This document shows positions 9,144-33,826 of a stretch of DNA of 34,936 nucleotides, in pieces. The translations under genes were made by a program, and so were the position numbers. The stretch is from a virus (Duplodnaviria > Caudoviricetes), in the IMG/VR virus record IMGVR_UViG_3300025396_000040, positions 1-34,936 of that record. The stretch is one strand, 5' to 3'. The first letter of the stretch is position 1; every line of letters starts with the position of its first letter. Under the pieces are notes generated by a model. The model ran no database searches and was not told the origin of the DNA. It was given only the letters and a program-made list of their open reading frames with translations.

Positions 9144-9269
9144 CTACTTACCCTTGCGGGCTTGGCTCAGTGCAATAGCAATGGCCTGCTTTAACGGCTT
9201 GCCAGCCTTGCGCTCGCTCTTGATGTTCGAGCTGATAGCCTTGCGGGACTTGCCCTTTTTGAGCGGCAT
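9144..9269 (-). CDS. Small basic protein, 41 aa (not in ORF track)
   Basis: [41 protein letters not shown]; TAATG coupling with the upstream ORF. Confidence 0.75.
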
Positions 9270-11918: not shown

Positions 11919-12233
11919 TCAGACCCTTAAATCGATTTTGCGCAGTTTATCACGACGCATCCGCTCTTCATAGGCGGCGACCCCGTGGATGATTGTGGTG
12001 TGATTGCGCCCCGCAAATAGCTTGCCGAGCAAGGGATAAGATAGACCGGAAACCTTCCTGGCTTTCCACATTGCCTCGTGCCGGATAGCTGAAATGTCGG
12101 CATGGCGGTCGTAAGACATCATCCGCGACGTACTGACCGTGTGAGCTTCCGCCACCTCCCGAATGGCTTTCTTGGCCAGCTGGTGGCGTTCTTGGATCGT
12201 CGGTTCCACGTTACCCCGCCAAATCGAGAGCAT
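11919..12233 (-). CDS. DnaA C-terminal (domain IV)-like HTH protein
   Basis: IREVAEAH..R...ISAIRHEAMWKAR..GLSYPLLGKLFAGRNHTTIIHG matches the DnaA domain IV signature; GGAGG SD before ATG 12233. Confidence 0.8.
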   Translation of the reverse strand: MLSIWRGNVEPTIQERHQLAKKAIREVAEAHTVSTSRMMSYDRHADISAIRHEAMWKARKVSGLSYPLLGKLFAGRNHTTIIHGVAAYEERMRRDKLRKIDLRV

Positions 12234-12378
12234 CGTCTGCCTCCGCTGCCCTGTTGGTTTCACCCAGTCCCCGCGGCCTGACTTTGGACCGGTAGATGCC
12301 AGCCTCCGGCAAGCCCATGTATCTGCGCCAGACTGCCCTGGCGAAGCGATACCAATTCTGTTTCTCAGCGTCGGTCAT
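12211..12378 (-). CDS. Small hypothetical protein, 55 aa (not in ORF track)
   Basis: MTDAEKQNWYRFARAVWRRYMGLPEAGIYRSKV..; ATGA overlap with the upstream gene. Confidence 0.55.
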   Translation of the reverse strand: MTDAEKQNWYRFARAVWRRYMGLPEAGIYRSKVRPRGLGETNRAAEADDALDLAG

Positions 12379-12818
12379 GATCTCAATCCCATAAGTTCCC
12401 GTGCCTTTAGCCTGCGGAGGCGGGCCTTTTCCATCAAATCTTTCCCAGCCGGCGGCATCTGGGTGATGTCCCGAGTGCCGGTCTCCTTCACCAGCATCTG
12501 GATGGCTGCCGTCTCATGCTCATCCGCCAGCATCTTCTGGATCCGCGCTTTGTCGAATAGGCTCATGCTTTCGTAAGCCACCACGGCAGCCTTCTTGGTT
12601 GGCTCGGCGAGCTGAATGCCTAACTCCCGAACGGTTCCCATCGCCTGGTCACGGATGCGCTCGTAGGCAATCATGGTGCGCGGTGTGAGCGTCATGTTGT
12701 CATACCGCCAAGTTGCACCTGACAGGTAACTGTACGCAAATTCCTCGCCATGCAGCTCCACGAACTTGGCTCGAACGTGCGCGGGTCCGTCAAATTGGGA
12801 CCTCTCCCCATCCTCCAT
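12375..12818 (-). CDS. Hypothetical protein following the replication initiator
   Basis: Probable start MEDGERSQF at 12818; position of a helicase-loader-type gene but no recognisable motif. Confidence 0.55.
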   Translation of the reverse strand: MEDGERSQFDGPAHVRAKFVELHGEEFAYSYLSGATWRYDNMTLTPRTMIAYERIRDQAMGTVRELGIQLAEPTKKAAVVAYESMSLFDKARIQKMLADEHETAAIQMLVKETGTRDITQMPPAGKDLMEKARLRRLKARELMGLRS

Positions 12819-13530
12819 CAGAGGCAATGCTTTCCGCTTCCGCCTGTTGGCGTTTCCATTGTTGGTGTCGGCGTTCCATTGCTGCGTAGTCAATTTGTGG
12901 CCCTTTCGGTTTGGTCGGCTTGGCGGATCGGAGCCAGTTCCTGGCAACGGCGTTCCAGTCGGATCTGGCGGTCTTAAATTCGTAGTCCTCAAGCTTGGTC
13001 AGTTCCTGTTCAATCTGGTCAGCCGTAAGACCGGCTTTCTCGCCGGTATCGAAAACGGAATCGTCAAATTCAAAATTAGGAGGGCAGCGCCGAGACTTGC
13101 GAGGCCCTCTCTCTTCTTTCTTCTTTATGAGTTCTGGTTCTGGTTCTGGTTGGCAGAGCGGGAAGCTGCCGGTAGCTAAAGCTGCTTCTTTGTTTTTCAA
13201 TGCCTTAGCATGCCCGCCATTTGACGCTGCCACCCTTCGCTGTCTGACAGCTTCGGTATGTCTCGTCAGTTCACGGGTCAGACGGCGTTGCGTCATTTCA
13301 CCGTTTTCGATGTCAAAAAACGCTAGCAGGGTCTCGCTCATGCGGTCCCATTGCGCCCTAGTGAGCTTGCATAGTTTGGCCAGCTTAGCGGGATTGGCTG
13401 GCAGGCTTCCACCAGATCGCCACATGCAAAACAGCAGCATCAGGTAGGCCCCGTGCTCCGTCGTGGTCAGGTGGGTTGTGTCGGCTAGATAGTCCCCGAC
13501 GTAGAGCGGCATGAATGGCGGGGATGACAT
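12790..13530 (-). CDS. DUF1376/YdaU-family phage replication protein
   Basis: PFMPLYVGDYLADTTHLTTTEHGAYLMLL..W; PEPEPE linker; DWNAVARNWLR C-terminal motif. Confidence 0.88.
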   Translation of the reverse strand: MSSPPFMPLYVGDYLADTTHLTTTEHGAYLMLLFCMWRSGGSLPANPAKLAKLCKLTRAQWDRMSETLLAFFDIENGEMTQRRLTRELTRHTEAVRQRRVAASNGGHAKALKNKEAALATGSFPLCQPEPEPELIKKKEERGPRKSRRCPPNFEFDDSVFDTGEKAGLTADQIEQELTKLEDYEFKTARSDWNAVARNWLRSAKPTKPKGPQIDYAAMERRHQQWKRQQAEAESIASDGGWGEVPI

Positions 13531-13808: not shown

Positions 13809-13981
13809 GCTCCTACCACGTTCCGCCAGTGCCATCGCACTCGGGCGCATAGCACCTGCACCTCAAGCGTCACGTAACCCGACATGGCCCACGCCTTGGC
13901 GGTCTGTTTTAGCTTGATTTCGTGGCGGCTGTAGATGGCACGGCGAACAGCTTCGTCTATTAGTTTTTCTCTCAGGACCAC
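13805..13981 (-). CDS. Hypothetical protein
   Basis: Probable GTG start at 13981, overlapping the end of the GcrA-like gene. Confidence 0.5.
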   Translation of the reverse strand: MVLREKLIDEAVRRAIYSRHEIKLKQTAKAWAMSGYVTLEVQVLCARVRWHWRNVVGA

Positions 13982-14166
13982 CGCCTGATCCTGCGGTGCT
14001 CCAGGTCCTTCATCCCGCCCTGCCACGTCGTTTGCACAAATGCTCGGGTCATGTGATACGGGCAATATATTTTCCCCCCGGTAGGTTCAGCGCAGAATAA
14101 ATGCTCGTCGGTCTGTAACACCGGCCAGTGACATTCGAATTTGCCAAGCTGACCGAGAGTTTTCAT
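13972..14166 (-). CDS. GcrA C-terminal-domain-like protein
   Basis: L..L...ECHWPV..FCAEP....YCPYH...AF equals the GcrA Cys/His domain; no N-terminal HTH. Confidence 0.75.
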   Translation of the reverse strand: MKTLGQLGKFECHWPVLQTDEHLFCAEPTGGKIYCPYHMTRAFVQTTWQGGMKDLEHRRIRRWS

Positions 14167-18603: not shown

Positions 18604-18807
18604 ATGAGCGATTTAATCAACCACCCACCTCACTACACCGCACACCCGTCAGGCGTGGAATGCATCCAGATCACCGAGCACATGGGGTTCAACCTGGGCA
18701 ATGCACTAAAGTACATATGGCGCTGCGATCTGAAGGCCGATGCGGTCGAGGATCTTAAGAAGGCTGTGTGGTACCTAGAGCGTGAAATAGCCAAGCGGAC
18801 GGCATGA
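18604..18807 (+). CDS. DUF3310-family protein (T7 gp1.7-like)
   Basis: DLINHPPHY..GVECI..FNLGNALKYIWR..K..EDLKKAVWYLEREI. Confidence 0.9.
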   Translation: MSDLINHPPHYTAHPSGVECIQITEHMGFNLGNALKYIWRCDLKADAVEDLKKAVWYLEREIAKRTA

Positions 18808-19172
18808 AAAAAGCCCGGTCAAACTCGGTTAGAGTTGCAGCATTGCGTAAAGGCTCGCGTCAATGTCTGCGCTGCGACGGCAAAACAGGAATACAAGTGC
18901 ACCACATTGTGGCTTTGGCGGACGGTGGGAAAGACGTTGTTGAAAACACCGTTTTGCTTTGCGTTACATGTCACCGCGATTGGCATCAGCGATTTGAAGG
19001 CCGATACAATTTTGACAAATTTGCGGTAACGCCGCCTGATTGGTTCATCAATCATTTCCTCATTGAGGAAGAACTCGAAAACGCGACAATCAACGATATT
19101 TACAATGCGTGGTTGCGCTATCGGTTCGAGAAACGCGGACTTTTAATCAACAATCGTTTGGATTTGCCATGA
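18804..19172 (+). CDS. HNH endonuclease
   Basis: CLRC..VHHIVALADGG..NTVLLCVTCHRDWH. Confidence 0.85.
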   Translation: MKKARSNSVRVAALRKGSRQCLRCDGKTGIQVHHIVALADGGKDVVENTVLLCVTCHRDWHQRFEGRYNFDKFAVTPPDWFINHFLIEEELENATINDIYNAWLRYRFEKRGLLINNRLDLP

Positions 19173-19348
19173 TCCAGCCGAGCCTGTTCCCCGAACAAAG
19201 TTCGCGTTCTAAAGGCGCATGCTCGCGAGATCCGAACGCAGGCCCCGGCACTTGCTGGTACTGGTGGGAAAGATGCCCAAAGGCTGCTAAGCGCGGCTGC
19301 TATTTTCTCTCGCAAGCCGAATCATCGAAACAAACGCAACGTCGGTGA
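19169..19348 (+). CDS. Small Cys/Trp-rich hypothetical protein
   Basis: ATGA overlap; last gene of the rightward arm; overlaps the convergent gene. Confidence 0.4.
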   Translation: MIQPSLFPEQSSRSKGACSRDPNAGPGTCWYWWERCPKAAKRGCYFLSQAESSKQTQRR

Positions 19349-20369
19349 TCGTTCCATCCACCACCGTCATGTCCACCACACCCCACCACCAGCCCGTGCT
19401 TGAGTGCTGGGCGTAGGATTCAATCTCGCCCCAAGGCATCCCGCAGCCCACCTCGACCATGCTGATGGAATCGGTCGGCCCGATCTTGGGAGCATCATGC
19501 ACCTGGCGGCGGTGGGTGTGGCCTGACACAATCGGACACGTTGTGTGATTGGCTGCCCGCTGGGGGCCTGTAGCGCCTTTGTAAGCCCGTCCAGCGCCAT
19601 TGACGGGGTGATGCACAAACCCCACGCCATTGACGTAGAACAGCTCTCCGTAGGGCCGCACACGCCACCCAAACTGCGTGAAAAGTTCATCCCGCTGAAC
19701 CGTAAAACTCTCCGCTGTCTCAGGGTTGGCGTTGCACCATCTCTCCAGGCGGTATTCGTGGTTGCCTAGGAGGATGTCCTGTTTGGGTCGATATCCCGAA
19801 GCTATCCCCGCTCGCCAAGCTTGCAGGCTCTGCTTGAGGTTCTCCATGTCCTGGCGGATGCTGGGCTTGTGCCGGCCAGCCATGGTGTCGTTGCGATCAT
19901 GTGCCGAGACACTGTCCCAGCTCGACCAATCCCCCACCTGGATAATCCGCTCAAACCGTTCCTTTGAGGCATACCGGGCAATCCAGGTAAGCACTTCGAG
20001 CCTGTGAGGTTGTCCGGGGTTTTGGTGGAGATCGCCAATAACAAGAAGCCGGGATCCATGTCCCGGCGTTGATATTACTGGCTGTGCAGCTGGGGTGATG
20101 ACTTGTCGCGGGACCGGCTGCTGGTATCGCTGCGGACGGTAGAGCGTCCAATCCGGTTCCAATCCCATCGCAGCGCAACGGGTTATCCGCGCTTCAAAAG
20201 ATGATGTGGTTTTGACGAACCCATCTGCGACCGCCTTTTGAGCAGCCGCAGCTATGGCACCCATGCCCGACCCCGTCATGCCACGGGGTCGGTATCCAGC
20301 CCGCAACTCGACCTCCACCCGCTCAATGGTCAGGCGAGCGGCCTCAAGGTCAAGCGGGGGAGCGCCCAT
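19287..20369 (-). CDS. Calcineurin-like metallophosphoesterase
   Basis: IGDLH, GDWSSWD, GNHE, HH and GHTH motifs. Confidence 0.88.
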   Translation of the reverse strand: MGAPPLDLEAARLTIERVEVELRAGYRPRGMTGSGMGAIAAAAQKAVADGFVKTTSSFEARITRCAAMGLEPDWTLYRPQRYQQPVPRQVITPAAQPVISTPGHGSRLLVIGDLHQNPGQPHRLEVLTWIARYASKERFERIIQVGDWSSWDSVSAHDRNDTMAGRHKPSIRQDMENLKQSLQAWRAGIASGYRPKQDILLGNHEYRLERWCNANPETAESFTVQRDELFTQFGWRVRPYGELFYVNGVGFVHHPVNGAGRAYKGATGPQRAANHTTCPIVSGHTHRRQVHDAPKIGPTDSISMVEVGCGMPWGEIESYAQHSSTGWWWGVVDMTVVDGTITDVAFVSMIRLARENSSRA

Positions 20370-22978: not shown

Positions 22979-24739
22979 TCACCCCGTGACCGCATAAGCA
23001 GTGCCGTTCCCGCTCAATGGACCCGCAAACGTGCCGGCGGATTTTCCGATTCGAGTAATTTCGCTGTTCACTGACGTGATGGCGTAGCTGGCCGTGGTGT
23101 TTGACGTGGCGTATATTGACGAAACAATTATAGAACCCGGCGATCCGGCATTTTCTACATATCCATACGTGGCATTGCCGGTTGTGATGATTTGACCAAT
23201 TCCGCTTCCGAAAGTATTGCCCGAAGAACTGCCGATGTTGACGCCAGCAGACGTAGTTGAGCCTTTGGCCAAAATGTTGCCAATCACGCAATTAGTGAGA
23301 TGGTCCAAATACACCGCGCTGCCGGTCCAGGCTTGGGAACGGAATGTGGTAAAATGCGACAATTGCTCGCTTACCAAAGAGATGCCTACAGTCCCTGCTG
23401 CTTGAGATGCAGTGTTTCCTACAGCGACCAAAGAGCCGCGATTGTAAGAGCCTCCAGTGGACAAAATACCGCCACCATACGAATTGTATGCTTTGATGTC
23501 GTAAAACCCTTCGGTGATATTTGTTAAAACAGCACCGGCACCAGTGATCGTGTCCGACAACCAATCCTCAATAATCGGAGAAATTTGGTTTGTCAGGTAC
23601 AAACCGTGCGCGATGTTCGTGCCTACAATTCCAGACGTGCCGTTGTATCCGGTGCCAACTACGCCGCTATCCCCGCGAATTTGAATGCCACCACCCGCAG
23701 TCGCGCCGCCGATGCTAAAACCTGGCCAATTGGGTTGATAGTAATTGTATGAACTTTGCCCAAGGGGGTCGTTGACCGTTCTGTCTTCAACGCAATGATA
23801 AAATTCAAAAAATCCTTGGACGTTGTAAAATTTGAATGCAGTCCCTCTGGGGTAATAACTGGTGCAATAATAGAATCGACATTGGAAAACATATCCAACA
23901 GAATTATCCACGTCTTGAGCAGCCAAAAACGATGCGTTTATTGTATTCAACCCAGAAACATTTATGCGCCATTGGCGGCCATAACTTGCGCCGAAAAGAA
24001 TTGCACCCTTTCCGGCAGACGCACCGGAAAAATTAAAAATTGCGTCGTTGAAATTCATCGACACATCAGTGACGATGGTCGCGGAAGAACTACCAATTGT
24101 AAAAGCGGTCGCCGTGCAATTTACGACAATGCCCGGCGTTTCAAATTCAAACGACATTCCGGTTGTAATTGGTATCGACCCAGAAAGTGTGTAGGGCGAG
24201 CCACTGGCTGGAACAATAACCCGATGTCCTTTGGACAAAGCTTTGATCATCGCTGTGTCAAAGGTATCGGTTCCAGGAATAAAATAATCCAGCAAGTTGA
24301 CCCAATCGGCCGCTTTTGTGAAAGCCGAGCGCGTGTAAGATCCAGTGCCGGATGGCGCGTAAGAAAGGCCGCTAAACGCGGAACTAGCAGTTGTTGCGCC
24401 GGTGCCACCAGAGGCAATTGGCAATGTGCCGCTTGTCAAAGCTGAAGCGGAAGTGGCGTATATAGCGCCGCCCGATGTAAACGAGGTCAGGTTTGTTCCG
24501 CCATTTGCGGTTGGCAACGTGCCAGTCACCCCGGTGGTCAAAGGCAACCCAGTCAGATTTGTGGCAACACCCGACGCAATTGTTCCAAGCGCTGGCGCGA
24601 CAAGGACGGGATTGTTTGACAGAACCAGGTTCCCGGTTCCTGTCAGCGTCGTCGTTCCGGTTCCGCCTCCAGACGTATTAAGCACACCGCCTGATGTAAT
24701 ATTTTCGGCAAACAGAGAAAGGTTACGGGGAATGGACAT
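22979..24739 (-). CDS. Tail fibre/tailspike with probable beta-helix receptor-binding or depolymerase domain
   Basis: LPxAxGGT shaft repeats, then WVNLLDY..DTAMIKAL beta-helix cap and a Gly/Asn/Ser/Thr-rich body; AT-rich. Confidence 0.75.
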   Translation of the reverse strand: MSIPRNLSLFAENITSGGVLNTSGGGTGTTTLTGTGNLVLSNNPVLVAPALGTIASGVATNLTGLPLTTGVTGTLPTANGGTNLTSFTSGGAIYATSASALTSGTLPIASGGTGATTASSAFSGLSYAPSGTGSYTRSAFTKAADWVNLLDYFIPGTDTFDTAMIKALSKGHRVIVPASGSPYTLSGSIPITTGMSFEFETPGIVVNCTATAFTIGSSSATIVTDVSMNFNDAIFNFSGASAGKGAILFGASYGRQWRINVSGLNTINASFLAAQDVDNSVGYVFQCRFYYCTSYYPRGTAFKFYNVQGFFEFYHCVEDRTVNDPLGQSSYNYYQPNWPGFSIGGATAGGGIQIRGDSGVVGTGYNGTSGIVGTNIAHGLYLTNQISPIIEDWLSDTITGAGAVLTNITEGFYDIKAYNSYGGGILSTGGSYNRGSLVAVGNTASQAAGTVGISLVSEQLSHFTTFRSQAWTGSAVYLDHLTNCVIGNILAKGSTTSAGVNIGSSSGNTFGSGIGQIITTGNATYGYVENAGSPGSIIVSSIYATSNTTASYAITSVNSEITRIGKSAGTFAGPLSGNGTAYAVTG

Positions 24740-25389
24740 TAAAACACCCTCACCGTGACAATATTCTGGAACGTGCCGCTTCTGTACAATTGGCCAATCT
24801 GCACACCACCGGCAGCGGCGGCGGCGTCGTTTGCATAATAGGCCAGATTGACACTTGCGACATTGTTCAAGGAAGTCGTGGCTGCATTGTAAATGCTAAT
24901 GGTGGACAGGCTGAACACGTCCACCGTGTCTCCCGCACCAGCAGCGACGGCCAGCGTGATGGTTGTGCCATTGGTCGCGGTGTAATCGCTCGGAGCCAGC
25001 AGGACGCCGTTGAGGTACACCAGCACATAGCCAGGCGTGTAATTGGCCGTGATGGTGCTTTGGCCCGTGGTGGTGTTGCGGACGTAGTTCTGGCTGATGG
25101 TGTTAAGACCAGAGGATCGATACCAATAGGCGGCGGGATACGTTGTGGGAACAACCGTGGTGATGCCGCCGTCATCCGTTGCGTTGCCCAATGCGTAATA
25201 GAAGAAGCCCTGCCCACCGTCGTTGATGGTGGAAAACCCGCGCACGTAGACCATCTGTCCAGGCTGAGCCACAAACGCCCGCAGCTGGATTACGCTATCG
25301 CAGGACTGAATGAACGTGTTGAGCTGATCGCCGGTGATGGCGGTTGCAGGCGTCCCTGTGTTGTACGTTGTCAGCTTGGGCGCGGTCAT
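24739..25389 (-). CDS. Tail accessory/adaptor protein
   Basis: VYVRGF...DGGQGFFYY tailspike N-terminal motif; VYLNGVLL..DYTATNGTTITL domain; YANDAAAAAGGV..GQLYR C-terminus. Confidence 0.7.
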   Translation of the reverse strand: MTAPKLTTYNTGTPATAITGDQLNTFIQSCDSVIQLRAFVAQPGQMVYVRGFSTINDGGQGFFYYALGNATDDGGITTVVPTTYPAAYWYRSSGLNTISQNYVRNTTTGQSTITANYTPGYVLVYLNGVLLAPSDYTATNGTTITLAVAAGAGDTVDVFSLSTISIYNAATTSLNNVASVNLAYYANDAAAAAGGVQIGQLYRSGTFQNIVTVRVF

Positions 25390-26708
25390 GGCTGCATATC
25401 CATCGCATAGCCGAACTTGTGCAGCTCAGGCAGCTTCTTGATGACACCGTCTCCGACATCGTTGCGGACGATCATGTTGGAGAACTTGATCTTGTCCACG
25501 GCGCCATAGACCTTGTCTTTCGCCTTGGAAACCGTCTTCCCAAGTCCGGTCACCACCATAACATATTCGCCGCTGGTTTGATAAATCGGCTTGTCCACGA
25601 CCTTGCCATCCTGCATGGCCGGTCCCTTGCCAATCATCATATCCACCGGGTGTACCTGGTCCCACATCTCGTCCGCACCAGCAATCGGATTCCCCTCAAC
25701 CTCCTTGGGTTCAGCGTCACCGTAAGGATAACGAGGCTGCGCCAGCACCACACCCATGGAAACATCGCGAGAGACCTTTAGGCTGTCCTCACCTCTCAAA
25801 AGGTCGAACATCCACTGGGCAGGGTCGCAGGGGTGTGACGCACACTGGATGAAGAACGCAGGCCAGCCCAGCCGGCACGTGAACTCAAACGGCCAAGCCT
25901 TGCCCTTGCTATCAATTCCGCACCCGATGGCGAAGTCGCCCCGATGGCCAGCCTTCAAAAGCTCGGCCTCCATAGGCATCAGCATCTCATCCGCCATCTT
26001 GTCCTGTTCAACATACTGGCAGACGGTGCCTTGCTCTCCGGTGTTGGGGCCGAAGTTGCCGGGCATGAGCTTCTTGTGCTCAAAGCAGATCTGCCACTTG
26101 TTGGGCAAGAACCCTTCCGGTCCAAACCACCCACTCACACCCACCTCGGCAATCATGTCGATCTTCTCTTGAAGCATGACCTGGCCCTTGGGGTTCAGCC
26201 CTTGTGCCTGCTTCCTCTGAAGCCAGCCCACCAGATCGGCGGGATCCGTGGAGACGTAGGACAGCGACTTGTCCTCATTGTCGCCCATGGTCTTGAACAC
26301 GTAGGACTTGTCCGACTTGCGGGCGAAGGTCTCGGCCTCTTTAAGGTTGTTGAACACTTGGTAGTCAGGGACATCGATCCCGACCCGCTTCATGGCGTCA
26401 AGTCCCGCTTTACGGTCGATCTCTAGCTTGGAGGACCGAACCGTTGGTGAGAATATTGTAAACCCCATGTCACGGTAACGATCCAGCTCGGGCATGAACT
26501 TGGCGTTGGCCGTGGTAACGATCAGGCCATTCTTCGCCCACGACATGGACGGCTTCCAATCGTCCACAATGGTTATGCCGGGGAAACCTTCACCGTTGCG
26601 CGTGGGTTTCTTGCTGTAGCGATACCACCGGACCTCATGCCCATAGGCTTCGCAGCGAACCGCAAAGTCGAGGCCGATGTTGTCTGCATCGATAAGCAAA
26701 ACTTTCAT
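25386..26708 (-). CDS. PurD (phosphoribosylamine-glycine ligase)-like ATP-grasp protein, divergent
   Basis: IFSPT..S.LEIDR, YVFK, LQEKI, EHKKL..G.GPNTGEQG and EFTCRLGWP align with PurD IFGPT..A.LEGSK, IVIK, IEEFL, DHKR..D.GPNTGGMG and EFNCRFGDP. Confidence 0.85.
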   Translation of the reverse strand: MKVLLIDADNIGLDFAVRCEAYGHEVRWYRYSKKPTRNGEGFPGITIVDDWKPSMSWAKNGLIVTTANAKFMPELDRYRDMGFTIFSPTVRSSKLEIDRKAGLDAMKRVGIDVPDYQVFNNLKEAETFARKSDKSYVFKTMGDNEDKSLSYVSTDPADLVGWLQRKQAQGLNPKGQVMLQEKIDMIAEVGVSGWFGPEGFLPNKWQICFEHKKLMPGNFGPNTGEQGTVCQYVEQDKMADEMLMPMEAELLKAGHRGDFAIGCGIDSKGKAWPFEFTCRLGWPAFFIQCASHPCDPAQWMFDLLRGEDSLKVSRDVSMGVVLAQPRYPYGDAEPKEVEGNPIAGADEMWDQVHPVDMMIGKGPAMQDGKVVDKPIYQTSGEYVMVVTGLGKTVSKAKDKVYGAVDKIKFSNMIVRNDVGDGVIKKLPELHKFGYAMDMQP

Positions 26709-27070
26709 TTGCAGATCCCGTAGCCATCAAGCCCTAACTCATGAGCTAATAGCATTTCCATGAGCATGGAGAAACGATGCTCGCGACGGTACGGTGCGCG
26801 GGGATCATCACCCGGCTCGGCGTCGTCTGAATGCAGCTTGGCCTCCAGTTCAGCCTGGAACCGCCAGTCATGGGCATCCACCGCTTCTTGGGATACTCCC
26901 CGCCGCTTGCAGAGGTACGCCTCCACAAGCTCATGCAGGGCGATCAGCAAGGCTTCCGGCTCATCCCCCGTGGCGCGGATGTGCAGGCAATCGTCCGCAA
27001 ACCACCAGTCACCCAGCGTGTCGTAGCGTTGCTCTTCGCCAGGGATGAAACGGATGTCTATACGGTTCAT
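26705..27070 (-). CDS. Small HExxE-motif putative metalloprotein
   Basis: QRYDTLGDWW..ALHELVEAYLC..VDAHD..EPGDDPRAPYRREH..ME; ATGA overlaps with both neighbours. Confidence 0.7.
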   Translation of the reverse strand: MNRIDIRFIPGEEQRYDTLGDWWFADDCLHIRATGDEPEALLIALHELVEAYLCKRRGVSQEAVDAHDWRFQAELEAKLHSDDAEPGDDPRAPYRREHRFSMLMEMLLAHELGLDGYGICK

Positions 27071-28623
27071 TGTTGAACACTCGGGGGCAGAACTTGGCCG
27101 GCAGCCTGGGTGGTCAGTGGCAGCGCGTTAACTCCGGTCCTTTGGGGAACCTTGACCCCACGGCGCAGCATTTGAGATGCGAGCGCATTGGTCGATGGCG
27201 CGACAACAAAATTATTGAGCAGTCCACCAACACCCTTGGCGGTTGAACGTTCAGACGTGCCAGAATCCGGGATGAGATCCCGCATGACCATATGATTGCG
27301 TTCAGCGAACGGTTGCATCAAAGCATCGCCCGCAGCGTACAATTTATGACGCACACCACCGGCTTGGCGTTTCACTTCTGCCAGCAAATCGCCAGAACTA
27401 AACACGCCGAAGCTGTCTTTCCGCCGAGTTGCGGCTTCTTCAACTCGGGTCAACATCGCGTAGGATTTATTAGTTGCCCGCAATGCATCCCGCACACCGG
27501 GGTCCGAATGCCGTTCAGCAGCGGTTCGCAACGCCATTTGCACATTGGACAATTCATCGCCCAACAATTGCTGCGCGGTGTCACCAGAACGCTTGTATAT
27601 TCTGGAAAGATGACCGACTTGCGATTCAATGTCTTTAAATGTCTGGCCGTCAATCCGATCGCCAGGCTTGAGACGCTTCAGGACGCGGCCATTGATGATC
27701 GCTTCCAATTGCTTTTCTTGCGCGGGCGGAAGTTCAGCGCCACCCGCTCTGATCACGCTCAGATCGTGGACAAACTCATCATCGGCCTTAACCTTGATCT
27801 TCGGAATGATCTTTTCGTATTGATCGCTTAGAATTTGCTGAAGGTTTTCAATTCCTTCCCGCCCGACTTTGCCGGTGTACTTGATCCCGAGGGGCTCCAA
27901 CACTTGATTATAAGCGGCGACGTTCATGCTGCGAACAGAACGATCTTCCTCCTGGCGGATGGCCTGGCTGACAAACGGATTGCTCTTCGCACGTTGTTCG
28001 GCCCGCGCCAAAGCGCCGCCCGCGCGGCGACCCGGCGTGAGATAAATTCCTTGAGACTCCATGTCAGCGACATGCTGCGGATTGATCTCAAACGTTTCTG
28101 CTTCCCAAGGTTCACGTACCGGCGGCTTCACGACACCCTTCAGAGCGTTCTTTCCAGCCGACACAGCACCGCCAAGGCCAGCCTCCAGGATGCGACCTCC
28201 CATGACACCAGCAGCGCCCTCGGGAACATCCAGAGCCGCACGTTTGGCTTGTTCAGCAAGCGTAGTTCTTGGGGCAGCACCAGATTGCTGAGTGGCCCAA
28301 TCGTATAACTGACCGCCGAGGCCAGCGCCCAGACCGACACCCGCAGCCTCCGTTGCTATACCGCCAAGACCAAGCGTCGGGATTGCCGCCACGCCAGCTT
28401 CCGGCAATGCCAATGCGCCACCGATGATTCCGCCCGCACCCGTCGCGAGTGCTCGACCCGTGTCGCGCCACTTGTCGGCGGCAGTTTGAGCGCGTTGAAG
28501 GGGTGGCGGTTTAGTTGCAACTGGCGCGGCGTGTTGCTCCATTGCAATCGCAATATCCGAATCCGGCGTCCCGTCGGGAAACGTAATGAATGCGCCGTCT
28601 GGTGCTCTGACACGCATAGGCAT
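27067..28623 (-). CDS. Putative DNA ejection/internal virion protein (gp16 position)
   Basis: Third large helical ORF of the ejection cluster; APDG..ITFPDGTPD N-terminus; Gly/Ala hydrophobic stretch. Confidence 0.65.
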   Translation of the reverse strand: MPMRVRAPDGAFITFPDGTPDSDIAIAMEQHAAPVATKPPPLQRAQTAADKWRDTGRALATGAGGIIGGALALPEAGVAAIPTLGLGGIATEAAGVGLGAGLGGQLYDWATQQSGAAPRTTLAEQAKRAALDVPEGAAGVMGGRILEAGLGGAVSAGKNALKGVVKPPVREPWEAETFEINPQHVADMESQGIYLTPGRRAGGALARAEQRAKSNPFVSQAIRQEEDRSVRSMNVAAYNQVLEPLGIKYTGKVGREGIENLQQILSDQYEKIIPKIKVKADDEFVHDLSVIRAGGAELPPAQEKQLEAIINGRVLKRLKPGDRIDGQTFKDIESQVGHLSRIYKRSGDTAQQLLGDELSNVQMALRTAAERHSDPGVRDALRATNKSYAMLTRVEEAATRRKDSFGVFSSGDLLAEVKRQAGGVRHKLYAAGDALMQPFAERNHMVMRDLIPDSGTSERSTAKGVGGLLNNFVVAPSTNALASQMLRRGVKVPQRTGVNALPLTTQAAGQVLPPSVQQ

Positions 28624-30005
28624 TAGCGTTGCACCTTCTCAGTTTTTTTGGTTGCCGGATTCCAAACGTATTCGGTCACGCCAGCTGGCGCGGCAGGCGC
28701 AGTGCCATCCGGCGACATCTCTTCAGCAGCGGATTCCTTGGCGGACGCCTTAATCGCGGAAATCTCCGACAAGAGTTGCTCGCCCTTCGCCCTGGCGTCG
28801 GCAGGGCTGGTGATGCCGAGCAGATCTCTCGCGTGCTTGCGTGTCTCAGCGTCACCCGCACCAGTCGGTGCAAGAGACCGGGCGTAGGCACCCGCGACAG
28901 CATTTGACGCCAGCAGGGCTTTGCTGACGGCAGGGTCACTGACTTGCGTCTTGCCCGCCAGAAGGGCGTCACGAAACATCTTCACTTGCGGCAAGCTGAG
29001 AGCCGACACCCGATCCACATATTGCGGAATCAGGCCTTTGGTCTCGTTGCTGTAGTAGTCCATCTGGCTTTTCAGCGTGGCGGTCCGTGCCATGCCCTTG
29101 CCTGATGCTTGATCGGCCAAGATCTCAGCGGATGTAGGCTCGCGTCCGTTCTTGGCTTTGAACTCTCGCCTGAACGCACCAGCCGCCATTTGGGCGTATG
29201 TCGGTGCGCGTCCGGTCTGCTTTTCAACAGATTCCGGTGCTTTGATGGGCGTGCCATCCAGCGTGGACGCCTTACCCGTCCTGGCGTTGTATCGGATCGT
29301 GGCGCCGGTGGTCGGGTCGTTCATAACCGTCCAACCGGATTCCGCCTCCTTCTGACGTTCAAACTGGAGGCGAGCGCCCTCAATGCCGACCCGTTTCGTC
29401 TCAATGCCTTCCTTGAAGGTTTCTTCCCGTCGCTTTTCCTGACGGTCGAGATAATCCTTGGACGCCACGGAGAACGTGCCAGGATCGAACTGGCGAGGCA
29501 TCTTGTGGCCCTTGGGCGCAATCTCACTGAGGTCGGCAAAGTCCTGATCCCAGACCTTCTGCGCGGCTGCTTGCTTCTCACCAACAGAACCTTTTGTGCT
29601 GGTGTAGGCTTCCATGGCTCGGCCGGCAGCGTCGTGCTGGGCTTCCTCAAACTTCATCATCCGCTCGGATTCTTTGGCATCCGTTTCGGCTTGAAGCTTA
29701 GTGGTCTCGGCCGTCAATTTGTCTTGCTCTTGGTTGCCCTTGACCAGCGCAGAATACGCATTGAAGTCCAAGCCACGAATTTTGGCGAGCGTGTTTGCAT
29801 CGACCTTTTGACCCGGCTCATAACTTGATTGAGCCAAGACGTCCTGAATGGCATTGGCCTTCTGCGAAGCAGCTTGCGCCGCCTGCATTTCCATCTGCTG
29901 GGCTTTTAGCTGTTGCAGCATGTTCGCTTGTTTCATCGCATTCGACGGATCGAATTGCTGAAACTGCGTGTTCAACATGCCGTAGATTGAGGTGTCGAGC
30001 GCCAT
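28623..30005 (-). CDS. Putative DNA ejection protein (gp20 position)
   Basis: MALDTSI start, Gln/Ala-rich coiled coils, synteny. Confidence 0.65.
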   Translation of the reverse strand: MALDTSIYGMLNTQFQQFDPSNAMKQANMLQQLKAQQMEMQAAQAASQKANAIQDVLAQSSYEPGQKVDANTLAKIRGLDFNAYSALVKGNQEQDKLTAETTKLQAETDAKESERMMKFEEAQHDAAGRAMEAYTSTKGSVGEKQAAAQKVWDQDFADLSEIAPKGHKMPRQFDPGTFSVASKDYLDRQEKRREETFKEGIETKRVGIEGARLQFERQKEAESGWTVMNDPTTGATIRYNARTGKASTLDGTPIKAPESVEKQTGRAPTYAQMAAGAFRREFKAKNGREPTSAEILADQASGKGMARTATLKSQMDYYSNETKGLIPQYVDRVSALSLPQVKMFRDALLAGKTQVSDPAVSKALLASNAVAGAYARSLAPTGAGDAETRKHARDLLGITSPADARAKGEQLLSEISAIKASAKESAAEEMSPDGTAPAAPAGVTEYVWNPATKKTEKVQR

Positions 30006-30007
30006 GA

Positions 30008-30808
30008 TCAGCCCCCAGTAAACGTGAAGTCAAGCGGGCTTGAGGCAAGGGGTGCGCCCGTCATGGCATAAGTCGGAGAGACAAGCGGTCCAGCACCGCC
30101 AAACACGCCGCCGGAATTTCCATAAAGTTGCTGCATGGTCAGCGCATTGGCGATGCTGTTGACCCCACCACCAATAGCGCCGGTAATAGCGTTTGCACCC
30201 GCGATGCCCGCCGCGCCTTGTGCGCTTGCCGACCCAGTCATCAAGTTGCCCGCCGCGTTAGCGTAATTTTGACCGGCTTGTCCCACGCCCGCCGCCGCGT
30301 TTTGGCCAAGGTTGGCTACATCGGCTAGCTGGTTGTATCTCTGATTTTGTTGCCCCATGTAGTTCTGGAGCTGCTGTTGATAGTCCATCTGCGCCAGCCC
30401 TTGGCCCTGCTGTTGCAATGCGAGAAGCTGGTTGCCGCCGAGCCCACCAATGCGTGACGCCGCATTCTGTGCCGATTGCAGGCCCTGTTGCAGTTCAAAT
30501 TGATAAGCGGGTGAGGCTTGAAATGCTTGCTGGCTGAACGGCGCGTTGAGTGAACCTTGACCAATTGCTCCGGTTGATCCTGGCGCGAGGCCAAGCCCTT
30601 GTTGCAACGCCGTCAACGCATTGCCACCAGCCGCCATATACGGCGCTTGATTGGCTTGCAGTTGCTGGAATTGTTGCGCTTGTAGGGCCTGCGCGTTTGC
30701 GGAGGCTTGCGCCTGTGCGTCGGCGGCGTCAGACGCTGCGCCTGACGCAATAGCCGCGCCTCCCACAGATGCAGCGCCCATGATGAGCGCAGGAATAAAG
30801 AAAGGCAT
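30008..30808 (-). CDS. Putative DNA ejection/pilot protein (gp7-like)
   Basis: Hydrophobic Gly/Ala N-terminus, AADAQAQA..QAPYMAAG..SPAYQF..QQG..LGQNAAAGVG. Confidence 0.75.
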   Translation of the reverse strand: MPFFIPALIMGAASVGGAAIASGAASDAADAQAQASANAQALQAQQFQQLQANQAPYMAAGGNALTALQQGLGLAPGSTGAIGQGSLNAPFSQQAFQASPAYQFELQQGLQSAQNAASRIGGLGGNQLLALQQQGQGLAQMDYQQQLQNYMGQQNQRYNQLADVANLGQNAAAGVGQAGQNYANAAGNLMTGSASAQGAAGIAGANAITGAIGGGVNSIANALTMQQLYGNSGGVFGGAGPLVSPTYAMTGAPLASSPLDFTFTGG

Positions 30809-30811
30809 GGT

Positions 30812-31363
30812 CTATTCCTTCAATTCGTCAGGCACCCACCATTCATTAACACCGTGCGCCATCTCGACGTTATAACCCAAATCGCTCTGGATGTTCAGAT
30901 GCATAAGTTGATGCAGCATCGGCTGGGACGTTCCCGGTGTCAGCCAATCAATAGCGTCCGAGATCGTCCAGTAGCTCAATTCATTGTAAGGTATCACTCG
31001 CACCAACGGGTGGTTTTCATATAGCCGCAGCATCTCTTGCAGGGCTTCCAGCCGTTTGCGCATTATTGGATTGTGAATGCCGTACCGATGGAAGCTTTCT
31101 TCCACCTGATCCACCGATCGGCGGATAATCAATGTCCTCGGGCGGAGTTCGTCCAGGATCGAAGGCAGCAGCATTCCCAGACCGGAATCCGAGATGCCCA
31201 CATACCGGAACTTGCTCTCGGTCCACAGCCGCACCAGCTCGGGCCAATCACTTAGCCATGCGGTGGGTTCATGATGGCACACACTCTCCGGTGTGGAGGT
31301 TGCAACAGAGAACCAAGCCGTCCGAGATCTGGGCAAGCCGGTGATGAAAAACGGTGTGCTCAT
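30812..31363 (-). CDS. Sulfotransferase-like P-loop protein, 183 aa
   Basis: FFITGLPRSRTAWFS (5'-PSB-like), CHHEP and IIRRSVDQVEES (3'-PB-like); start reassigned to ATG 31363 (ATGA overlap). Confidence 0.65.
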   Translation of the reverse strand: MSTPFFITGLPRSRTAWFSVATSTPESVCHHEPTAWLSDWPELVRLWTESKFRYVGISDSGLGMLLPSILDELRPRTLIIRRSVDQVEESFHRYGIHNPIMRKRLEALQEMLRLYENHPLVRVIPYNELSYWTISDAIDWLTPGTSQPMLHQLMHLNIQSDLGYNVEMAHGVNEWWVPDELKE

Positions 31364-32990: not shown

Positions 32991-33253
32991 TCACCCTCCA
33001 TCCAATGATTGAGATATCTTGCTTGAAGGCCCGTCAAAGCCGCCAGCATGACATGCGTCCCCGCATTGTCCCCATGACACCAGCCTAGCGTAGTGTCCCG
33101 GTTAGGAGCCGCGTAGGCGTAAGCGATGGCCACGATTTCGCCACGCTTGGCTTCTTCCAGAATGCGTTCGAGATCCGCCACGATGTCAGCATCTGCTGTA
33201 CCGGGAGGAACTCTGCCAAACGGCGAGATGACTTCACCCATCAGGTTCCCCAC
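32987..33253 (-). CDS. Hypothetical protein
   Basis: LERILEEAKRGEIVAIAYA; overlaps both neighbours. Confidence 0.65.
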   Translation of the reverse strand: MGNLMGEVISPFGRVPPGTADADIVADLERILEEAKRGEIVAIAYAYAAPNRDTTLGWCHGDNAGTHVMLAALTGLQARYLNHWMEGE

Positions 33254-33762
33254 CTTTCATGCGGGCGGCGGTTCTGCGACTGGGTGGCGCAATCGGCCCA
33301 GCGGCAATTTTCAGGCTCATATATACCGTCATTGTTGATGCGGTCCAAGGTGTAACCGGGATGGGGGATCGGCCCCATGTCCTGTAGGAACATTTGGTAG
33401 TCAGCCCAGCGATCACATACGCGAATGCCACGCTCGTAATAGCTTCTCTTCATGGCAGCATTCCGTGCCGAGCATCTGCGGTGCATTGACATCCAGGCGC
33501 GATATTCTGGCGTCCAGTTTTGGGTTTGCCCTGATCTGGCAGTCGGGATTGCCGGAGTCAGTTTGCGAGCAATCGATATGGGCTTTTGACAGCCGCAGGA
33601 TTTGCTTTTCCCTGTTCGCAGAGTTTGCGCGTTAACGGTGCGCTCTACACCGCAATCGCATTTGCAGCGCCACACGCTTTGCCCAAGTTTGTTGGCACCG
33701 CCAAATTCCACGACGGTCCAAGCGCCAATCCGCTTGCCGGTAAGATCGATACGAGCAGACAT
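33241..33762 (-). CDS. HNH homing-endonuclease-like protein
   Basis: DLTGKRIGAWTV..WRCKCDCG..SCGC..YRAW.SM..RC..RGIRVCDRW..TLDRINND..YEPENCRWA..Q..NRR; GGAGG SD before ATG 33762. Confidence 0.88.
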   Translation of the reverse strand: MSARIDLTGKRIGAWTVVEFGGANKLGQSVWRCKCDCGVERTVNAQTLRTGKSKSCGCQKPISIARKLTPAIPTARSGQTQNWTPEYRAWMSMHRRCSARNAAMKRSYYERGIRVCDRWADYQMFLQDMGPIPHPGYTLDRINNDGIYEPENCRWADCATQSQNRRPHERWGT

Positions 33763-33765
33763 GTA

Positions 33766-33790
33766 AACCTCCCTTTGATTGTGGGAGGCT
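33766..33790 (-). promoter_or_regulatory. Hairpin occluding the HNH gene SD
   Basis: Minus-strand AGCCUCCC-ACAAUCAAA-GGGAGGUU; candidate promoter TTGAGC-N17-TAGCCT overlaps the 5' arm. Confidence 0.6.
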
Positions 33791-33826
33791 AACACTTATA
33801 CCGAAACCGCTCAACCCCTTATGGGA

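Follow-up and report, generated by a model that had tools for sequence, protein, structure and literature searches.

The window analysed here is the complete virus record IMGVR_UViG_3300025396_000040 (34,936 bases with direct terminal repeats), whose late operon carries two adjacent genes encoding an ATP-grasp ligase and a small protein with an HExxE motif. The ligase has the fold of PurD, the phosphoribosylamine-glycine ligase or glycinamide ribonucleotide (GAR) synthetase, but it is not a GAR synthetase: the core handling ATP, Mg, and the acyl-phosphate is kept, while the substrate residues are lost. Its family is large, consists mostly of viral members, and extends to haloarchaeal proteins classed in 2011 as non-GAR synthetases; the linkage to the HExxE gene is real but one-way. 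Taken together, the ligases form a widespread and uncharacterised family of viruses, optionally accompanied by a predicted metallo-hydrolase. The combination is a variant of ATP-grasp ligase plus peptidase systems, and the pair likely makes and processes an amide-linked modification late in infection. The two genes are:

25386..26708, minus strand: PurD-fold ATP-grasp ligase, 440 aa, not a GAR synthetase (fold, kept core, lost substrate residues)
26705..27070, minus strand: HExxE protein, 121 aa, predicted zincin-like metallo-hydrolase (conserved residues H46, E47, E50, D68, E85, H98, E105)

The original prediction, made from the sequence of this window, had described both genes as chained by three ATGA overlaps, and these were found at 27067-70 (518-aa gene and HExxE gene), 26705-08 (HExxE gene and ligase), and 25386-89 (ligase and fibre gene). 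ATGA overlaps are frequent in phage late operons, and by themselves are thus no proof of functional coupling. Both genes have a GC content and GC at third codon positions (GC3) similar to the host genome, and both are under purifying selection: across five near relatives, 54–112 synonymous vs 3–15 non-synonymous codon differences were counted for the ligase, and 10–34 vs 2–9 for the HExxE gene. In a sixth, more distant relative, these counts were 188 and 78 for the ligase, and 43 and 49 for the HExxE gene.

A PurD fold without the PurD substrate residues

The AlphaFold model of the ligase (pLDDT 93.8) includes the N, B, A, and C domains, and its best Foldseek matches were all PurD (EC 6.3.4.13), with TMq values of 0.68–0.76. 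This likeness to PurD structures (PDB 5VEV, 2YW2, 1GSO, 2QK4) covers the whole four-domain fold at about 22% identity, and the nearest folds overall were PurD, PurT, and PurK. On the PurD model TIGR00877, which matched once within the record, the ligase reached 73.4 bits (72.3 bits in the genome search) vs a cut-off of 288 bits that was exceeded in 14/14 control genomes. Among Pfam domains, GARS_C was matched, GARS_A only weakly, and GARS_N not at all.

The motifs listed in the original prediction are present, namely HKK..GPNTG at residues 211–224, EFTCRLGWP at 275–283, and GDNEDKS at 142–148, and the GxGGREH motif is absent from the ligase sequence, as had been noted. GDNEDKS stands in place of the GLAAGK B-loop, which is conserved in PurD (PMC2978367), while R[LF]GDPE is replaced by RLGWPA and DHK by EHK, so that the Arg is kept and the GDPE Asp and Glu are lost. 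To map individual residues, we used E. coli PurD numbering and an alignment of 8 PurDs, 10 cellular paralogues, and 55 group-1 and 18 group-2 viral sequences, group 2 being a second viral subfamily described below. The phosphate-binding K145 and the acyl-phosphate R290 of PurD are retained in 91/91 rows, the Mg-binding acid is Glu or Asp in all 91, and K216 and E286 are retained in 55/55 group-1 rows. In the window ligase, the kept residues for ATP, Mg, and acyl-phosphate are R99, K139, E188, E210, K212, E275, and R279, and all of these except E210 were also recorded as unchanged across 50 close homologues.

The ligands of phosphoribosylamine (PRA) and glycine present the opposite pattern. In PurD, these comprise an N-domain Arg/Glu pair, the Asp and Glu of GDPE, a C-domain Arg, and the Asp of DHK (PMC8449271, PMC2978367), for which the window ligase has I11 and G12, W282 and A284, Y382, and E210, respectively. 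The D293 column of PurD is aromatic in 49/55 group-1 rows, and the N288 column, a second Mg ligand, is Thr in 54/55, i.e., ExN has become ExT. With the PRA and the glycine ligands both replaced, neither substrate is likely to be the one used by PurD. Purine-gene labels in databases are likely wrong for the same reason, and since JGI names these ligases phosphoribosylamine-glycine ligase, virome surveys may count them as purine auxiliary metabolic genes, and the tables of such genes found in supplements may list them as purD.

Two types of unusual ligase architecture were observed in the family. Some ligases of 750–825 aa contain a large insertion (P0021, P0046, P0054, P0115; loci L029, L180, L218, L280), and since a LAGLIDADG Pfam match was obtained for two of these, the insertions are likely inteins. 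Two others carry a C-terminal HAD-like DxD domain (L267:5799-7400 and L272:7977-9575), which matched PHROG 1238 (E 6e-8) and PHROG 415, polynucleotide kinase (E 7e-5).

A large and mostly viral ligase family

At E ≤ 0.001, the window ligase finds 1,408 clusters, some of which may be true PurD; the best 120 of these are ≥60% identical, and the nearest Atlas clusters are mostly viral. Trees were built with PurT and PurK as outgroup and with eight bacterial PurDs, archaeal PurD being left out. In favour of the original prediction, the eight bacterial PurDs formed one clade excluding the phage proteins (FastTree 1.0, SH-aLRT 100), and the group-1 viral sequences formed another together with the cellular paralogues (65/65 rows, support 1.0; 16/16 rows, SH-aLRT 96). 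These trees do not resolve how PurD, group 1, and group 2 branch relative to one another.

Cellular relatives were found in Halarchaeum, Roseomonas, Sphingomonas, and Chondrinema, as well as on numerous contigs from metagenomes. Those from Halarchaeum (WP_123078225.1, 29.5% identity), Roseomonas, Chondrinema, and metagenomes group with the phage ligases, sharing the motifs EHKK..G..G..TGE.GT and EFT.R.G[YW]P, and in the trees the cellular paralogues nest among viral sequences. No operon partner common to several taxa was found for them across 84 cellular ligase loci; a co-oriented GNAT gene lies beside one paralogue and an opposite-strand aminotransferase gene beside another. A search without positive control for the Roseomonas-type paralogue found it in none of 301 sampled genomes of one phylum. 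By pattern scan, the window subfamily itself occurs in 5 of 185,579 species genomes, always on contigs of 4–55 kb from metagenome-assembled genomes (MAGs) with virion-type neighbours, and in 4/5 of these MAGs a true purD is present elsewhere.

The second viral subfamily, group 2, has no Pfam match, and shows full-length homology to the window ligase at 15% identity (HHalign 99.3%). It includes ligases of two Aquificae hot-spring viruses (L203:8995-10185 and L204:9013-10224), located three genes past the portal gene, one of which is labelled phosphoribosylaminoimidazole carboxylase. No HExxE gene was found beside these two ligases, and a term search of the main text of PMC7689252 returned no mention of them. 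Among 50,697 phage records, family-level matches to the ligase came only from metagenomic ones; in one GenBank record, MW202796.1 (L190), an intact family ligase open reading frame (ORF) at about 42140-43470, behind the last ejection-type gene, was left unannotated.

The HExxE protein is a predicted metallo-hydrolase

The HELVE motif lies at residues 46–50 of the 121-aa protein, for which no match was found in Pfam, PHROGs, NCBIfam, or PDB sequences. Homologues nevertheless form 234 clusters at 90% and 1,812 at 50%. Across 373 aligned sequences, G20, H46, E47, E50, D68, G87, P93, Y94, H98, and E105 are each ≥99% conserved, with E50 at 100% (rounded), hence HExxE rather than HExxH. The predicted structure (pLDDT 96.6) comprises three strands, a motif helix, an insert helix, and a C-terminal helix (residues 95–111) bearing H98 and E105, a topology that fits the zincin core as described in PMC5512222.

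Fold comparisons against 48,161 chains gave weak matches only, the best being CapP and PprI (Z 4.8; the top match with rmsd 3.5 over 87 aligned residues), followed by a YbeY-type protein (Z 4.7), and IrrE- and SprT-like proteins appeared among the matches to viral models. The protein may resemble zincin-like metallopeptidases (IrrE/PprI, CapP, SprT, YbeY, and the metallopeptidase domains of polyvalent proteins), which top the weak fold lists, in that a sheet of three strands, an HEx-x-x helix, and a C-terminal helix with a putative metal ligand are predicted for it. Unlike them, it has HExxE for HExxH and additional invariant GDW, D68, and EPGD..PY motifs, and matches no sequence family. It is likely a metallo-hydrolase with swapped ligands rather than a proven zincin. 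Further down the fold list come YfcM, an iron hydroxylase, and an HExxH oxygenase (Z 3.6 and 3.4, respectively), and these rows are the only pointer to a conceivable oxidative role; the absence of a family from the fold lists carries no weight.

Seventeen longer HExxE proteins were also detected, including 13 HNH fusions, one endonuclease VII fusion, two that look chimeric, and one of 1,517 aa. Mobile nucleases seem to target the HExxE gene in the fusions (P0243-P0257). A candidate natural ligase–HExxE fusion, P0256, consists of a ligase C-terminus and a truncated HExxE domain, looks chimeric, and was not counted. The 1,517-aa protein, P0259, holds an HExxE domain at about residues 600–700 and might be injected in the manner of polyvalent proteins, although neither Pfam, PHROGs, nor its locus gave a match indicating an ejection protein.

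Linkage of the two genes is one-way

To evaluate linkage from the HExxE side, we retained 64 of 80 fetched loci with ≥1.6 kb on each side, forming 46 clusters at 70% identity. A ligase gene was found within 1 kb on the same strand in 35/46 clusters, a count uncorrected for phylogeny, as are those below. Of these 35, 19 have a group-2 ligase, 12 one of the window subfamily, and 4 one of the cellular-like subfamily, so that the linkage extends to a ligase subfamily only 15% identical to that of the window; 27 have the upstream and 8 the downstream order. Among near-complete HExxE records picked for having no window-type ligase nearby, 10/11 still hold a family ligase somewhere, next to the HExxE gene in six cases (group 2) and elsewhere in four.

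Seen from the ligase side, an HExxE partner was present in only 20 of 89 clusters (148 loci with ≥1 kb on each side). A whole-record search covering 50 of the 56 loci without an adjacent HExxE gene found that 13/18 near-complete ligase records lacking an adjacent partner have no HExxE gene anywhere, and the HExxE gene was absent from 84/84 cellular ligase loci. The coupling put forward in the original prediction extends to unrelated phages, but most ligases have no HExxE partner. A dependence of the HExxE gene on the ligase, but not of the ligase on the HExxE gene, is what would be expected if the partner's step, whether processing or reversing, were optional.

Genomic position and neighbouring genes

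The window was assigned to a P22-like podophage by Pfam scan (portal PF16510, coat PF11651, gp7 PF25688), and its PHROG matches include terminase, scaffold, gp10-type head closure, and adaptor genes. The late order on the minus strand runs from gp10 through a sulfotransferase-like gene, gp7, two ejection-type genes, the 121-aa gene, and the 440-aa gene to the tail-fibre-like genes. The immediate neighbours of the pair are:

30812..31363, minus strand: sulfotransferase-like protein, 183 aa from the second Met (a homologue matches PF13469 weakly, E 0.027)
30008..30808, minus strand: P22 gp7-like DNA ejection protein, 266 aa (PF25688)
28623..30005, minus strand: second ejection-type gene, 460 aa (identity suggested by gene order, no family match)
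27067..28623, minus strand: last ejection-type gene, 518 aa, candidate substrate (identity suggested by gene order, no family match)
24739..25389, minus strand: first tail-fibre-like gene, 216 aa, candidate substrate (ATGA overlap with the ligase stop)

Pfam scans of 66 ORFs (30 + 36) found no other purine gene, as originally reported. The slot between ejection and tail genes, also part of the original prediction, applies to the window and to its P22-like branch, where the ligase lies between the last ejection-type gene and a fibre gene and the HExxE gene is located before it, after it, or is missing. It does not apply to other phages: there, the ligase separates terminase from portal, or portal from a protease or capsid gene, follows genes for very large proteins of internal type, or is surrounded by baseplate genes. 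Overall, ligase neighbours in most annotatable loci are ejection, fibre, terminase, portal, protease, capsid, adaptor, or baseplate genes.

We also evaluated relatives recovered through gp10, based on 38 of 80 fetched loci (those with ≥7.5 kb downstream). The ligase was present in 5/38, all five also with the HExxE gene and none of them new to our scans. A whole-record search without positive control did not find the ligase in any of 23 gp10-seeded relatives, including eight near-complete ones; the same profile yielded matches in another search. The module is thus accessory, since a sister phage lineage of the same gene order lacks both genes.

A sulfotransferase-like, Asp/Asn-hydroxylase, or GNAT gene near gp7 was found in 28/38 ligase-bearing P22-like clusters vs at most 2/49 ligase-free loci, a comparison that is confounded by lineage and by the reference sequences being drawn from the ligase-bearing set. 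Bacterial operons offer a parallel, in which a hydroxylase and a sulfotransferase were proposed to act on tail-collar or collagen-like proteins (PMC2938197). Modifier genes appear interchangeable in the slot between gp10 and gp7, which holds sulfotransferase-like, Asp/Asn beta-hydroxylase (PF05118), GNAT-like, or cupin-like genes, and some related loci have a GT9 glycosyltransferase gene upstream of the adaptor gene. A 41-aa Lys-rich ORF upstream of the terminase region (9144-9269, minus strand), too short for the ORF list with its 50-aa limit, was considered as a general amine substrate and rejected, as it occurs in 5/35 ligase-bearing vs 8/15 ligase-free records. Its homologues were found in 13/50 records searched, and such ORFs flank the ligase in some loci.

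Possible functions of the ligase and its partner

Our best explanation, which we hold tentatively, is that late in infection the ligase forms an amide, with a protein of the virion or an ejection protein as the probable target, and that the HExxE protein is a predicted hydrolase trimming the substrate or removing the tag. Under this scheme, ATP and Mg would phosphorylate a carboxylate at K139, K212, E275, and R279, and an amine entering via the rebuilt N-domain site would attack the acyl-phosphate, following the general ATP-grasp chemistry of acyl-phosphate formation and amine attack (PMC8449271). The Asp/Glu pair that holds the glycine ammonium is lost, which suggests that the acid is not free glycine. 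In the partner, the metal might be held by H46, E50, and H98 (or E105), with E47 as the base, which would make the site a ligand swap of the HExxH+E zincin site. The target is probably a virion protein, judging purely from gene context, in which sulfotransferase-like, Asp/Asn hydroxylase, and GNAT genes are often close by. A repurposed amide ligase with a putative metal-dependent partner, as originally proposed, is supported by the position outside the clade of the eight bacterial PurDs and by the linkage in unrelated phages. A more elaborate form of this scheme, which we consider speculative and doubtful, would be a writer/eraser system carried by many uncultured tailed phages: a PurD-derived ligase would conjugate an amide-linked group to virion or ejected proteins, the HExxE hydrolase would remove it or expose the acceptor, in the particle or post-injection, and cells would have borrowed the ligase from viruses.

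Several observations weigh against amide modification of virion proteins by such a pair. The ligases of L258 and L271 are located outside the virion block, among small genes near phoH, and that of L235 lies beside CYTH and Nudix genes. Both genes are missing from 33/38 gp10-seeded loci of the same gene order, and particles are therefore built without the module. No conserved terminal tag was seen on gp7 or the ejection proteins, as judged by eye, and stand-alone ligases exist in cells, with no virion to act on. As for the partner, no adjacent HExxE gene is found in 69/89 ligase clusters, and three ligase profiles failed to match anywhere in G005, a complete record that has the HExxE gene. The HExxE model had no match at Z ≥ 5 among the chains compared and none at E ≤ 0.001 in Foldseek, and its Atlas score of 0.79 serves as a lead only. 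Finally, the two viral fusions of the ligase to a HAD-like phosphatase point to a phosphorylated small molecule.

A small-molecule pathway, which we consider nearly as likely as our best explanation, would accommodate some of these observations: late in infection, the ligase would join a small acid and a small amine (e.g., a polyamine, amino-sugar, or nucleotide derivative), and the HExxE protein, as an amidohydrolase, would supply or recycle a component. The nearest folds are those of PurD, PurT, and PurK, enzymes whose substrates are all small molecules, and the HAD fusions in L267 and L272, the solitary cellular members, and the GNAT or aminotransferase genes beside single ones fit the same picture. 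However, no decarboxylase or other metabolic partner, and no C39 peptidase or GNAT gene, lies directly beside the ligase in a scan of 68 immediate neighbours, chosen from the 150 that were listed out of 186, and the PRA phosphate-binding residues are gone. Metabolic genes persistently found among virion genes across unrelated architectures would also be unusual, which we counted against this pathway. We consider it unlikely that the ligase and/or the HExxE protein are packaged in the head and ejected with the DNA to act on a host protein or metabolite early in the next infection. In favour of such an effector are the fixed slot behind the last ejection-type gene in P22-like phages and the position behind very large internal-type proteins elsewhere; however, many ligases lie between terminase and portal or between portal and protease. 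In P22, the genes located between gene 16 and gene 9 are accessory and variable, and the slot position may thus mean little. The internal HExxE domain of the 1,517-aa P0259 would fit as well, since injected polyvalent proteins contain zincin-like domains more often than any other (PMC5512222), but P0259 is a single sequence without a match marking it as an ejection protein.

That the two genes have no functional link, being accessory late genes inserted at the same hot spots of the virion operon, with the ligase working alone, is quite improbable in our assessment. The low partner frequency from the ligase side (20/89) would fit this case, as would the several genomes with the genes ≥6 kb apart or on opposite strands, and the HExxE gene may move with mobile nucleases, given that 14/17 longer forms are fused to HNH or endonuclease VII domains. 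However, ligases of three divergent subfamilies are repeatedly found next to an HExxE gene, with either gene first and across distinct genome architectures, and near-complete HExxE genomes rarely lack a ligase (1/11, among records selected to favour such cases). That the ligase gene is a true purD with an auxiliary metabolic role, as per the JGI labels, is very unlikely: while PurD is the best match in sequence and fold, and R279, K212, and an acid at 210 are kept, the ligase scores 73 bits vs a cut-off of 288, has no GARS_N match, has its PRA and glycine ligands replaced, falls outside the PurD clade, and is accompanied by no other purine gene. The same losses led to the rejection of haloarchaeal relatives as GAR synthetases in the corresponding passage of PMC3261824.

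Relation to known systems and significance

Compared with PurD, the window ligase keeps the ATP-grasp Lys/Glu/Arg core, the GPNTG loop, and a GARS_C domain, but has no GxGGREH, GLAAGKG, GDPE, or C-domain Arg, and lies in a separate clade and among virion genes with no purine genes nearby. The haloarchaeal PurD-like proteins, to which the phage ligases can be likened through relatives of the Halarchaeum WP_123078225.1 type, have the same losses (GARS_N, P-loop, and GDPE Asp), and two of them, rrnAC0307 and Hlac_1553, were judged not to be GAR synthetases in a passage that does not mention viruses (Brown et al. 2011, PMC3261824). These haloarchaeal and bacterial paralogues differ from the phage ligases in being solitary, with no HExxE partner (0/84 loci), and they nest inside the viral diversity. 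A resemblance to ATP-grasp peptide ligases with peptidase partners (RimK, LysX, graspetide ligases, R2K/CDC123), which include phage R2K ligases (PMC7824862), would lie in amide formation, the proposed protein target, and the peptidase-like neighbour. Unlike these, however, the window ligase belongs to the PurD-like branch of ATP-grasp proteins (RimK-type model match at E 0.026 only), no precursor peptide or carrier was found for it, and its partner is an HExxE protein.

The original prediction had named the system its best candidate for an undescribed one. For the viral ligase this is consistent with open full-text literature, where titles and abstract starts gave no description of a viral PurD-like ligase, subscription papers and supplements being outside this scope; it does not extend to the family, which has cellular members, two of which were already called non-GAR synthetases as noted above. 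The work of Iyer et al. in 2009 on amidoligases may cover the cellular PurD-like clade. A term search of PMC11041744 returned nothing relevant, and the HExxE domain may be present in the supplementary files on polyvalent proteins. The ligase points to a putative chemistry that purifying selection maintains in the late operons of numerous unrelated phages, ranging from podophages of the P22-like type to viruses of hot-spring Aquificae, and provides a handle on the function of haloarchaeal and bacterial PurD-like proteins, whose cultured hosts permit direct study. If virion proteins are the target, amide conjugation would join the known ways in which phages modify their particles.

Other features of the window

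Beyond the late genes described above, the window includes three nuclease genes, namely an HNH gene between adaptor and gp10 (33241-33795), an endonuclease VII gene after the coat gene (2115-2576), and a second HNH gene where the early block ends (18804-19172). Weak matches to GcrA (13972-14166), a DnaA-C HTH domain (11919-12263), and DUF1376 (12790-13530) hint at an alphaproteobacterial host. A calcineurin-like metallophosphoesterase gene (19287-20369, minus strand) is located after the lysis genes, at the end of the late operon.

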